A model generated the notes under the pieces. It did no database searches. It was not told where the DNA came from and saw nothing but the letters and a program-made list of their open reading frames with translations. A DNA stretch of 56,748 bases, the filler included, from Porpidia crustulata (taxonomy: Eukaryota), in assembly GCA_964255105.1 (NCBI GenBank). It is 3 parts of 3 records of this genome, joined end to end, with 100 filler letters (N's around TTAATTAATTAA, not from the genome) between each part and the next. Parts side by side here need not be neighbours in the genome. Positions count along the whole stretch, not along the records: positions 18,969 to 37,832 come from CAXUWE010000166.1; 2 more parts are not named here. One strand, written 5' to 3'. The first letter of the stretch is position 1, and every line of letters begins with the position of its first letter. The position numbers were made by a program, and so were the translations under genes. This document shows positions 29,101 through 31,192 of this stretch, one piece after another.

Positions 29101-31192
29101 CTTTGTAGCAGCAGCACCCAAGGACCAGCGACCATGGTCTCGCGTTGTTCCTTCGTCTACAGACCGCGATAATTCAGGAATTCAGGTTCACCTTGGGAAG
29201 CAGCAAGACAATAGTATATTCTATGAGGATAACAATATTATAGCTGCGCTGTCCTCAAGGCCTCTAACCTCTGGCGAGACATTAGTGCAAGTGAAAGGCG
29301 AAGCAAGTGTTCCAGGTCGAGCCGCATTAGATGAAAAACTCACATTTGTGAGCATAATGCGCTCACTGCGACACTGTGCCAGCGTTTTAAAGAAGGGCCT
29401 AGATACCCGTCGCATAGCATTGGTCTTTGATGAGAGTGTCAAATTAACACCTATGCATGGTCTTGACGATGATTGGGCTGCTATCACACATGCCGAAGAA
29501 GAGTTTCATCGCCATTACCCTGGGTATATCAGTTCCAAGAACGGTCCGAAGCAGTCGAACAGAGATCTAGATCACGTACGCCAAAGAGCTACCACAGTGG
29601 AACAGCCGGCTATGGACACGACATTCTTCGGATCTTCAGATGACGGCAGTTTATTTGCAAAGATTGTCCGGGGCGAATCAGAGCAATGGCGAATATGGGA
29701 AAATCCATCGCATGTTGCGTTCCTTACACCATGGGGCAATACCCCAGGATACACCGTTTTGGTCCCACGTACCCATCTATCGAGCGACATCTTCGACCTG
29801 CCGGATTCCGACTACCATGACCTCGCAGAAGCAATCTTCGAATGTTCGGCAGTCCTCAAACAAGCTTTGGGCGTGGATAGGGTGGGATTGATATTCGAAG
29901 GAATGGAAATCAATTACGCCCATGCCAAGTTGATCCCTATCCCACGAGAGCACATTCAATCTGGTATTGAAACAGAGGATTATTCAGACACCTATCGCGG
30001 CTTTGTCTCATCGAAGCAATGCTCATCAATCGCAGAGGCAAGTCATCTTGTATCTGCATCAAATGTGTTCAAATGGCTGACTGAAGTGCAGACTTCCGAT
30101 CTGCAAATTGTGCTGGCACAGATAAAGGAGAGAACTACGGATTTCAAAGCCGTGGAGCCACATCAATCGTGGAAGAAGCCTTCGACCCATTTTACAGAGG
30201 CTCTCAAGTCTTCGTGGTATCGAGATCTCTTTCACATAGTTGATGGCTTTTTCCACAGTACAATAAAATACTTCAATCAAGAGATTGGGTATAGCTATGC
30301 TCTGACGCCAGTAACCACCGATTGTATATCATCTCCTATGGGTCTAGGATCAGACTCGCTCCCTGTCAGTGTGGACCTTTTCAACGCCTCAACTTACCTC
30401 GCCGACTCCATGCAATTCACATTGGAGTATCTTCTACGATTCAACGACCGTGCCGCCGGCATGTATTATATTGCTCCCTCTTTCCGTGGGGAAGATCCCG
30501 ACGCCACACATCTCAACCAGTTCTTCCACGCTGAATGCGAGCTCCGAGGGACTATGGCAGACGCCATGAAGGTTGCTGAAGGCTATATTTACAGTGTTAC
30601 CAAAACTCTGTATGAGCAGCATGGAGACGTAATAAAAGAGATGGCCGGGACTCTTGATCACATTCATCAGCTACTGGATAATTTTGATGCACGTAAAGGT
30701 TTCCCGCGCGTCGCCAACGATGCAGCCATAGATATGGTCCCATCTCAGGACTGCTGGGAATACGTCGACGAGAAGGACGTCCAGCTTGGCAGGAAATTGA
30801 CTCGTGCTGGGGAGCGATTTCTGATTCAGAAATATGGTGGATTCGTTTGGCTAACAGAAATGGACCATCTCTCGGTTCCCTTCTATCAAGCCTACACCGA
30901 AGAGCATGGCAAGGAGAAAGCCAAGGCTGCTGATCTGCTCTTCGGCTTGGGAGAGACGCTCGGTCTTGGCGAACGGCACGCAACCGTACAAGAGGCCACT
31001 GACGCTTTAGACCATCATGAGATCCCCCATGACTCCTATCAATGGTATCTTGACATTCGAAAAGTTCAGCCGGTCAAAACCAGTGGGTGGGGGTTGGGGA
31101 GCGAGCGGTATCTCTGCTGGCTACTGCAGCATGATGATGTGAGGGATGTGCAGCTGCTACCGAGATTGAAGGGTTCCAAGTTTTTCCCATGA
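26167..31192 (+). CDS. Multidomain fusion enzyme: carnitine/choline acyltransferase-like + isoaspartyl peptidase/L-asparaginase (Ntn) + 2x HIT-like + AsnRS/AsnA-like catalytic domain
   Basis: Uninterrupted 1559-codon ORF 26513-31192. Predicted exon 1 is 26167-26301 with a phase-0 intron 26302-26449. Motifs: LPDYPIPSL and DHAVADG; VIHAGAG, FNAGKG, Q|TVGA, STGG, GRIGDT, SGEGD; FAKIVRGE..PGYTVLVPRTH..YAHAKLIP; YLADSMQF, SFRGE..HLNQFFHAECE, GWGLGSERY. Confidence 0.9.

Follow-up and report, generated by a model that had tools for sequence, protein, structure and literature searches.

A class IIb synthetase-like ligase domain in a probable four-domain enzyme of Porpidia crustulata, with relatives from bacteria to fishes

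What does the catalytic core of an asparaginyl-tRNA synthetase (AsnRS) do in a fungal protein that lacks the anticodon-binding domain? This question is raised by a gene of Porpidia crustulata (GCA_964255105.1), located in a stretch of 56,748 nucleotides, filler included, which is called the window here. A sequence-only reading had placed a probable tRNA-independent amide ligase at 30200..31192. The AsnRS-like core was confirmed, but it is not free-standing: it is one domain of a probable 1625-aa, four-domain protein. The reading that we favour, at a probability of about 70%, is that positions 30164-31189 encode the C-terminal domain of a four-domain enzyme, and that this domain is a tRNA-independent, adenylate-forming ligase for an Asp/Asn-type substrate which cooperates with its fused partners.

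On the plus strand, positions 26450..31192 form one uninterrupted open frame of 1580 codons and a stop, with all four domains inside. Their order is carnitine-acyltransferase-like, Asparaginase_2, two HIT repeats and the AsnRS-like ligase, which takes up the C-terminal quarter. Residue numbers count along this frame. The features of the ligase are the following:

30164..31189, plus strand: class IIb aminoacyl-tRNA synthetase (aaRS)-like ligase domain, residues 1239-1580, from Pfam, NCBIfam, alignments and a structure model
From 30395, plus strand: YLADSMQF segment, read from the sequence
30479-30541, plus strand: motif 2, SFRGEDPDATHLNQFFHAECE, residues 1344-1364
31085-31111, plus strand: motif 3, GWGLGSERY, residues 1546-1554

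By profile, motifs and fold, the domain is a class IIb aaRS catalytic core. Pfam tRNA-synt_2 (PF00152) matched residues 1265-1573 with E 3.9e-28 (98.8 bits, cut-off 25), and motifs 2 and 3 are intact, as had been read before. The motifs of the family are SSPMGLGSDS, YLADSMQFTLE, motif 2, VPFYQ, ADLLFGLGETLGLGERH and motif 3. An AlphaFold model of window positions 30053-31189, built with a 15-sequence alignment as input, reached a mean pLDDT of 85.2. AsnRS structures came out on top when this model was used in Foldseek (1x54 at E 1.1e-23, TM 0.74), and VIA superposition on the same structure, the AsnRS of P. horikoshii, gave a Z of 36.1 with a root-mean-square deviation of 2.3 Å over 316 residues. 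The match covers the catalytic domain only, since residues 38-378 of the model map onto residues 114-434 of 1x54, without the N-terminal OB-fold. No match to tRNA_anti-codon (PF01336) was found across the 1580-aa frame at E <= 0.1, and the stretch between the second HIT repeat and the ligase consists of helices and loops in the structure models. The earlier claim that an OB-fold is missing was thereby upheld.

The catalytic residues have been kept throughout the family. All 12 four-domain orthologues compared share R1346, E1348, E1362, E1364, G1546, G1548, G1550, E1552 and R1553, and the motif residues of the ligase are invariant in all 15 members of a broader set that includes bacteria. From bacteria to fishes, this holds for the class II catalytic motifs and for the pocket elements S-x-Q-x-x-x-E, R-x-E, H-x-E-x-E and the Arg of GERH.

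Solved AsnRS chains were the nearest by sequence, yet distant (8.6e-19 for P. horikoshii, 1.4e-16 for Brugia and 3.3e-14 for human). With AsnRS (1x54, human 8tc7) the ligase shares the catalytic fold, motifs 2 and 3, S-x-Q-x-x-x-E, H-x-E-x-E and the Arg pocket motifs, whereas the identity in structural alignments is merely 22-24%. When compared with 1x54, S-x-Q-x-x-x-E, F-R-x-E, H-x-E-x-E, G-E and the Arg of SQRE/GERH are kept. In contrast, the basic motif-2 loop of AsnRS (KSRTRRH) corresponds to an acidic EDPDATH in the window ligase, (T/S)QS is replaced by ADS and SQRE by GERH. The window segment YLADSMQFTLE aligns with YLSQSAQLYLE of 1x54, and a canonical fungal AsnRS, encoded on metagenome contig L126, has YLTQTSQLYLE; the observation that YLADSMQF departs from true AsnRS was therefore correct. 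The Porpidia crustulata ligase also differs from AsnRS in having no OB-fold anticodon domain and in falling into a separate clade.

Among NCBIfam profiles, the best matches were two models named "asparagine synthetase A", NF005053 (E 1.3e-61) and NF005055 (E 3.7e-55), and both AsnRS (E 6.7e-35) and AspRS ranked below them. No curated cut-off was reached by any of these. The scores were 208.6 against 322 for NF005053, 187.4 against 389 for NF005055, 54.5 against 368 for NF005052 and 45 against 309 for NF005054, while the AsnRS equivalogs TIGR00457 and NF003037 gave 115.4 against 342.6 and 120.9 against 414. Not one of 14 tested relatives reached any NCBIfam cut-off for asparagine synthetase A or AsnRS. 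ESM Atlas returned only bacterial clusters of the "asparagine synthetase A family" and of "amino acid--tRNA ligase-related" proteins, with scores of 0.89-0.90. Taken by its sequence, the ligase appears to belong to a distinct and large class IIb synthetase-like family which is neither AsnRS nor demonstrably asparagine synthetase.

The position of this family was evaluated in two quick IQ-TREE trees of hand-picked ligase domains, with class IIb references from five bacterial genomes. The trees cover the ligase domain only; one eukaryotic AsnRS was included (second tree), and the archaeal-type asparagine synthetase (AS-AR), SlgZ and the archaeal and animal AsnRS were left out. The first tree had 58 rows, of which the 39 of the ligase family made up one clade (SH-aLRT 100), with the bacterial AsnRS adjacent to it (support 91). 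The eukaryotic members formed one clade of 19 rows, also with SH-aLRT 100. For the second tree, L085, L090 and L100, whose ORFs had been picked wrongly in high-GC DNA and whose branches were very long, were dropped together with the aberrant L092, and six rows were added, among them the canonical fungal AsnRS of L126. The family clade then comprised 44 rows (SH-aLRT 100), with the L126 AsnRS outside. Thus, five bacterial and one fungal AsnRS were excluded from the ligase family, and nesting within eukaryotic AsnRS was not seen for the rows compared.

The clade of four-domain proteins was supported at 96 in the first tree (11 rows) and at 92 in the second (14 rows). Inside this clade, the first tree separated fungi (99) from Lingula plus fishes (97) as reciprocally monophyletic groups. 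Fungal four-domain proteins (99) and fish proteins (100) were again recovered as groups in the second tree, which did not resolve the order among them, Lingula and L001, a contig discussed below. The first tree is more in line with old vertical descent and many losses than with recent transfer, and a recent prokaryotic origin, which had been suggested from the sequence alone, is not indicated.

Taken together, the missing anticodon domain, the position outside the AsnRS clade, the asparagine synthetase A profiles as best matches and the acidic motif-2 loop make a tRNA-independent ligase, the function proposed before, a sensible reading. Enzymes of the truncated AsnRS-like kind are already known, AS-AR and SlgZ being examples. 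AS-AR, or AsnRS2 (3p8t, 1nnh), has an AsnRS core without the anticodon domain and works without tRNA, and the "asparagine synthetase A" profiles are the top NCBIfam matches of the window ligase. In contrast to AS-AR, the window ligase scores under all curated cut-offs and shares its chain with an asparaginase, HIT repeats and an acyltransferase. In a passage of one paper, SlgZ from the streptolydigin cluster of Streptomyces lydicus is described as "asparaginyl-tRNA synthetase-like" and as acting with the methyltransferase SlgM in tetramic-acid biosynthesis (PMC5357945). The likeness to SlgZ is by description, and a ligase-methyltransferase pairing also recurs beside bacterial relatives of the window ligase.

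The ligase is preceded in the same frame by these domains:

26666..28093, plus strand: carnitine/choline acyltransferase-like domain, residues 73-548 (Pfam PF00755, E 4.8e-42, 144.7 bits)
28268..29128, plus strand: Asparaginase_2, an N-terminal-nucleophile (Ntn) isoaspartyl peptidase/L-asparaginase, residues 607-893 (PF01112, E 2e-66, 224.7 bits)
28754-28756, plus strand: Thr769, the Asparaginase_2 nucleophile, invariant
29207..29479, plus strand: HIT-like repeat 1, about residues 920-1010, ending in PMHGL (model ma29904421017, strands 28-106)
29651..29941, plus strand: HIT-like repeat 2, about residues 1068-1164, motif INYAHAKLIP
29921-29923, plus strand: His1158, the central triad His of HIT repeat 2, invariant

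Twelve full-length orthologues were aligned, and His300 of the acyltransferase, Thr769 with TGG and GR-x-GD of the asparaginase, His1158 of the second HIT repeat and motifs 2 and 3 of the ligase were all invariant. In the acyltransferase domain, whose nearest solved relative is CPT2 (E 9.7e-15), the catalytic His300 lies in the motif DHAVADG and D304 is invariant as well (12/12). The Asparaginase_2 domain has E. coli EcAIII precursor (2zak, E 1.9e-52) as its nearest solved relative and carries the substrate-binding motif GRIGDT. Its invariant residues are T769, T787, G788, G789, R797, D800, G820 and G822, and the domain retains the residues for binding a beta-aspartyl substrate by its free alpha-amino and alpha-carboxyl groups. 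If self-cleavage at Thr769 takes place as in its relatives, the protein may consist of two associated chains.

For the HIT region, residues 896-1240 were modelled (pLDDT 77.7), and the model consists of two HIT-like repeats. Foldseek returned HINT1, ecHinT and other HINT structures (E 2e-5 to 1e-3, TMt of about 0.7, about 115 aa), and two-repeat GalT-type uridylyltransferases aligned over 290-350 columns. Pfam HIT (PF01230) matched residues 1075-1145 with 21.1 bits, slightly below the cut-off of 21.5, and the same family is assigned to most fish orthologues in the Pfam precomputed list. Two HIT-like repeats lie directly upstream of the ligase, where HIT domains had been noted before. Y1156, A1157, H1158, K1160 and L1161 of repeat 2 are invariant, and His1003 of repeat 1 was found in at least 90% of the orthologues. 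Neither repeat has the triad H-x-H-x-H or H-x-H-x-Q: the sequence is Y-A-H-A-K-L-I in repeat 2 and P-M-H-G-L in repeat 1, so that the central His alone is kept. The region resembles the HINT/GalT branch in its predicted alpha+beta HIT-like fold, in the paired repeats in one chain (GalT-type) and in the central nucleophilic His; it differs in its motif Y-A-H-x-K, and the matches are weak.

In the frame of 1580 codons, the earliest Met lies deep within the acyltransferase domain. The start of the protein is probably supplied by a further exon upstream, for which the following model was obtained:

26167..26301, plus strand: probable exon 1, ATG start, 45 codons (MAQSGV...PPNDV), in a frame that differs from that of exon 2; sequence-inferred
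26302..26449, plus strand: probable intron of 148 nt (GTACGC ... ACTAAC ... TAG); sequence-inferred
26450..31192, plus strand: exon 2, 1580 codons and stop, carrying all four domains

The intron would have its GT donor at 26302, a branch-point-like ACTAAC near 26434 and its acceptor AG at 26448-26449. In the orthologue alignment, the fungal proteins have a similar N-terminal extension ahead of an L-P-x-Y-P-V-P motif. The full protein, exon 1 (26167-26301) plus exon 2 (26450-31192), would probably have about 1625 aa. The public copy of this protein (P0002) has 1450 aa and begins at an internal GTG, and consequently the first ~175 residues are gone from it, including the conserved L-P-x-Y-P-x-P that opens the acyltransferase domain.

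Full-length relatives were searched among proteins of 869-2765 aa, and the best 120 of 214 matches were listed. Besides the own protein, the top of the matches listed was made up of five proteins with 63-90% identity, including TRUGW13939_04536 of Talaromyces rugulosus. The other listed matches were from Lingula anatina and, as si:ch211-256m1.8 proteins, from many teleosts, with ligase domains 57-62% identical. Nearly all the listed full-length matches carry the same Pfam families. The four-domain protein is thus shared by a few fungi, Lingula and many teleost fishes. In the teleosts its gene, si:ch211-256m1.8, is called saiyan. The identical four Pfam families occur in it in the same order, with about 40% identity over the full length, and by sequence the window gene is the fungal orthologue of animal saiyan. 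In passages of two papers, saiyan is described as an iridophore marker "with no previous associated function" and as required for normal iridophore cover (PMC12918100, PMC12919797). The fish gene is therefore known as an iridophore marker, whereas the fungus has no iridophores. Among the papers listed for the gene name, judged by titles and abstracts, there was no biochemical study of saiyan. A literature search on the combination of carnitine acyltransferase, asparaginase, HIT and asparagine synthetase gave nothing relevant, and the ligase subfamily, its fusions and the four-domain form are not described in the literature searched. An unannotated fungal gene is now linked to a named vertebrate pigment-cell gene without biochemistry. 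As the fungus is filamentous and has a single-intron copy with an adjacent transporter, a product may be searched for more easily there than in a fish iridophore.

A contig labelled as bacterial was considered as a candidate for the four-domain form in prokaryotes (L001, QNER01000461.1, from a "Ca. Parabeggiatoa" metagenome-assembled genome). It bears the four-domain gene at 1-4500, open at the 5' end, and a 2-kb tail with 40% GC and almost no open reading frames (ORFs). The candidate was rejected: the 6.5-kb contig holds this gene alone, its ligase falls inside the eukaryotic clade, and it is probably a mis-binned eukaryotic contig. In another metagenome contig (L117, MDSQ01000524.1), the acyltransferase part is split over several ORFs by introns and the ligase nests among teleosts; this is probably fish DNA in an environmental assembly.

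Shorter relatives show how the ligase is combined elsewhere. A word-free search through 1.84 billion representatives retrieved 1628 proteins at E <= 1e-3, with ordinary class IIb synthetases among them, and 133 at E <= 1e-30. Pfam was run on 24 of the best 150 relatives, picked mainly for unusual length. These include stand-alone ligases of about 345 aa and fusions of the ligase with HIT, with Asparaginase_2 (with or without HIT), with PP-binding (P0141), with a RimL-type GNAT, with a methyltransferase and with PilZ. Among shorter relatives there are many ascomycete proteins, about 50% identical, and a three-domain protein of a chytrid. Streptomyces proteins named "asparagine synthetase A" are 47-48% identical, and the stand-alone bacterial relatives about 45-50%.

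In the proposed mechanism, the ligase would bind ATP and an Asp/Asn-type amino acid and form an acyl-adenylate, at either the alpha- or the beta-carboxyl. The acyl group would then pass to a small nucleophile instead of tRNA. By analogy, the preferred acceptor would be a phosphopantetheine-type thiol such as coenzyme A (CoA), the alternative being ammonia or an amine, as for AS-AR and SlgZ. The thiol is preferred because of the carrier-protein fusion (P0141), the carrier-protein neighbours described below and the fused CoA-dependent acyltransferase. The latter would move the acyl group to its final acceptor. The HIT pair would remove or re-use stray acyl-AMP, Asparaginase_2 would supply Asp and NH3 from Asn or trim a beta-aspartyl amide, and the adjacent ABC transporter would probably export the product. 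Since Asparaginase_2-(HIT)-ligase and HIT-ligase fusions, which occur without the acyltransferase, support such a coupling, we infer that the four domains may act in one pathway around an activated aspartate or asparagine (Asx) unit. The amide idea is favoured by the asparagine synthetase A profiles, by the SlgZ-SlgM pair and by the presence of a methyltransferase no more than three genes from the ligase in 18 of the 67 bacterial loci.

Several points weigh against the mechanism proposed. The CoA-thioester step is drawn by analogy, from one fusion and three loci with carrier-protein genes. The acyltransferase domain is divergent in sequence, its top solved match having E ~1e-14. The HIT repeat scores slightly under the Pfam cut-off, and of the three triad histidines it keeps one. 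The model of exon 1 and the intron, read from the DNA sequence, is only a probable one. An asparaginase and an asparagine-synthetase-like enzyme that both act on free Asn/Asp would run a futile cycle, and so at least one of them must act otherwise. Finally, the role of saiyan in pigment cells suggests no obvious tie to the chemistries proposed.

In order to evaluate the bacterial contexts, genomes were scanned for the ligase. A relative is encoded in 292 loci, of which 80 were kept; ORFs were called with a heuristic of our own (968 ORFs) and clustered by BLASTP. The ligase ORF was recovered in 67 of the 80 loci, and the counts of neighbours refer to those 67. The recurrent neighbours are:

S66 peptidase: 27 of 67 loci, within three genes in 23
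ATP-grasp ligase: 27 of 67 loci, within three genes in 18
S-adenosylmethionine (SAM) methyltransferase: 22 of 67 loci, within three genes in 18
P450: 15 of 67 loci, within three genes in 9
Major facilitator superfamily (MFS): 11 of 67 loci, within three genes in 10
RimL-type GNAT: 6 of 67 loci, within three genes in 3
Pyridoxal-phosphate (PLP) decarboxylase: 6 of 67 loci, within three genes in 3

The S66 neighbour matched Lmo1638 and MccF best (E 8e-45 to 2e-33), LD-carboxypeptidases being at about 1e-22. The GNAT neighbour matched YdaF, RimL and MccE (MccE 3r95, E 1.5e-16), and the ATP-grasp neighbour matched an L-amino-acid ligase. Stand-alone HIT genes adjoin the bacterial ligase in two loci (L048, L076). 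A carrier-protein gene is present in three bacterial loci, and in L059 a PP-binding+Condensation gene begins where the ligase gene ends. The bacterial relatives occupy cluster-like neighbourhoods, not amino-acid biosynthesis operons, and they mark many uncharacterised clusters of actinomycetes and clostridia. A secondary-metabolic role, as proposed before, would fit the cluster-like bacterial loci and the conserved divergent ABC transporter neighbour in fungi, but the animal orthologue is a pigment-cell gene.

Genes for aaRS were also observed near the ligase, and they differ among loci (L044, L052, L059; L009, L019, L027, L029, L035; L014, L030). Full-length AlaRS, PheRS alpha or beta and LeuRS were seen in actinomycete and clostridial loci, and HisRS-like and ProRS/ThrRS-like genes, full or partial, in further ones. 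In five loci (L002, L008, L058, L063 and L075; proteobacterial, Chloroflexota-like and Legionella), genes for LuxC, LuxE and/or a LuxD-like Acyl_transf_2 follow the ligase. Such sets of LuxC (acyl-CoA reductase) and LuxE (acyl-protein synthetase) stand for acyl activation and reduction, without an obvious tie to Asn chemistry. In two loci of gut Clostridia (L032, L038), genes for a Zeta_toxin/AAA_33-type kinase and a PLP decarboxylase come directly after the ligase (e.g. L032:9133-9954).

These results allow other explanations to be weighed. The ligase could be a true AS-AR, which converts Asp and ATP to beta-aspartyl-AMP and, with ammonia, to Asn, while the asparaginase regulates the Asn/Asp balance. 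The ranking of NF005053 and NF005055 above AsnRS, the truncated architecture that AS-AR shares and the conserved AsnRS-type pocket residues all agree with it. However, the scores are well below the curated cut-offs, which none of the 14 relatives reaches, and Pyrococcus AS-AR (3p8t) aligns to query residues 282-374 only, the last ~93, at E 5.5e-8, weaker than AsnRS (1nnh gave E 6.9e-7). Membership in the archaeal asparagine synthetase family, with which the domain had been compared before, is consequently not demonstrable. Solved AS-AR was not among the Foldseek and VIA matches listed, which carries no information on the fold. Moreover, the fusion with an active-looking asparaginase would make net Asn synthesis futile, and the bacterial relatives lie in cluster-like contexts, not in amino-acid biosynthesis operons, so that a true AS-AR is considered rather unlikely. 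The full class II catalytic machinery and the AsnRS-like pocket would also suit a functional AsnRS, or a tRNA-dependent transferase similar to AsnRS, in which tRNA is bound with no anticodon domain of its own. Such an enzyme is very improbable in view of the missing OB-fold, the acidic motif-2 loop, the separate clade and the scores far under the AsnRS cut-offs. Synthetase-like regulatory subunits such as HisZ exist and set a precedent for a non-catalytic pseudo-synthetase, a sensor or scaffold limited to binding an amino acid or ATP and to regulating its fusion partners; such a role is hardly to be expected here, as the catalytic residues of motifs 2 and 3 and the acidic residues that bind Mg/ATP are invariant from bacteria to fishes and the bacterial members that stand alone carry no second domain that could be regulated.

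Another explanation starts from the neighbours. Three enzyme classes, MccF-like, MccE/RimL-like and HIT, are immunity factors against processed microcin C, and all three accompany the ligase family: an MccF-like S66 peptidase lies no more than three genes away in 23 of the 67 bacterial loci, a RimL/MccE-like GNAT is present in 6 loci and in one fusion, and HIT is found both as fusions and as neighbours. The family might thus make or process a stable aminoacyl-nucleotide, a microcin-C-type mimic of Asx-adenylate, with HIT making or breaking a P-N/P-O link and the other domains tailoring or detoxifying the product. Recurrent genes with a SAM-methyltransferase fold, PLP decarboxylases, MFS exporters and L-amino-acid ligases fit this picture, as do the extra aaRS genes (AlaRS, PheRS, LeuRS, HisRS-like, ProRS/ThrRS-like) in several loci and the head-to-head pair of a canonical AsnRS and an Asparaginase_2-HIT-ligase gene in L126. 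Against this, the accompanying aaRS differ widely in specificity and could be housekeeping genes present by chance, the AsnRS neighbour was seen in one organism only, and a literature search on MccF, L-amino acid ligase and related terms found no link. A literature search on asparagine synthetase A in gene clusters led to the putative asparagine synthase Amm20, which is not of this family. An ordinary acyl-adenylate is also unstable, and extra chemistry must be assumed. It is therefore unlikely that the ligase family stands at the centre of an overlooked route to Asx-adenylate mimics, which would be non-ribosomal counterparts of microcin C. If it were, the bacterial loci would be flanked by matching immunity genes and spare aaRS, the family would be fused to HIT and asparaginase in fungi and animals, the task of the fungal enzyme and of fish saiyan would be to make or turn over an antimetabolite or signal of the Asn/Asp-AMP type, and the AsnRS of L126 would be a self-resistance copy. 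The resemblance of the accessory genes to the microcin C tool-kit is a lead for genome mining of natural products directed at aaRS.

For the four-domain ligase enzyme of the favoured reading, a candidate partner in the window is the divergently transcribed neighbour:

20042..24045, minus strand: full-size multidrug-resistance (MDR)-type ATP-binding cassette (ABC) transporter, with Pfam ABC_membrane twice and ABC_tran twice

On metagenome contigs of a relative that is 79% identical, the order ABC, gene, PIG-Y, GATase was found in 9 of 10 loci; in the tenth, the contig starts too near the gene to show the ABC neighbour. An ABC transporter is also located upstream of a 45%-identical four-domain gene (L116). 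The transporter is a possible exporter partner, as judged from this gene order. The genes downstream are housekeeping-like (PIG-Y, GATase, BRAP2, polyubiquitin and others). In the window, a frame of 365 codons at 31755-32849 on the plus strand has PIG-Y as its last 70-80 residues, preceded by a long Ser/Pro-rich N-terminal part without a Pfam match.

On the fungal metagenome contig L126, the canonical AsnRS (8091-9884, minus strand) stands head-to-head with the Asparaginase_2-HIT-ligase gene (9749-12964, plus strand), the two genes being about 240 bp apart. The AsnRS has AsnRS_N, the OB-fold and the catalytic core, and the ligase of the three-domain gene is 49% identical to the window ligase. 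This AsnRS may serve as a self-resistance copy, or it may lie there by chance. Loci L123-L127 seem to represent one gene in sister samples.

Upstream of the ABC transporter by window coordinates, the following features were identified with Pfam:

8848-9940: 2-oxoglutarate (2OG)-Fe(II) oxygenase, split by an intron
11187-12146: Acyl_transf_1 ORF
13645-14841: methyltransferase with an HTH_51 domain
15182-15658: Abhydrolase_3

Several ORFs without a Pfam match lie in the same region (8848-19519), and its ORFs may form a small secondary-metabolite cluster.

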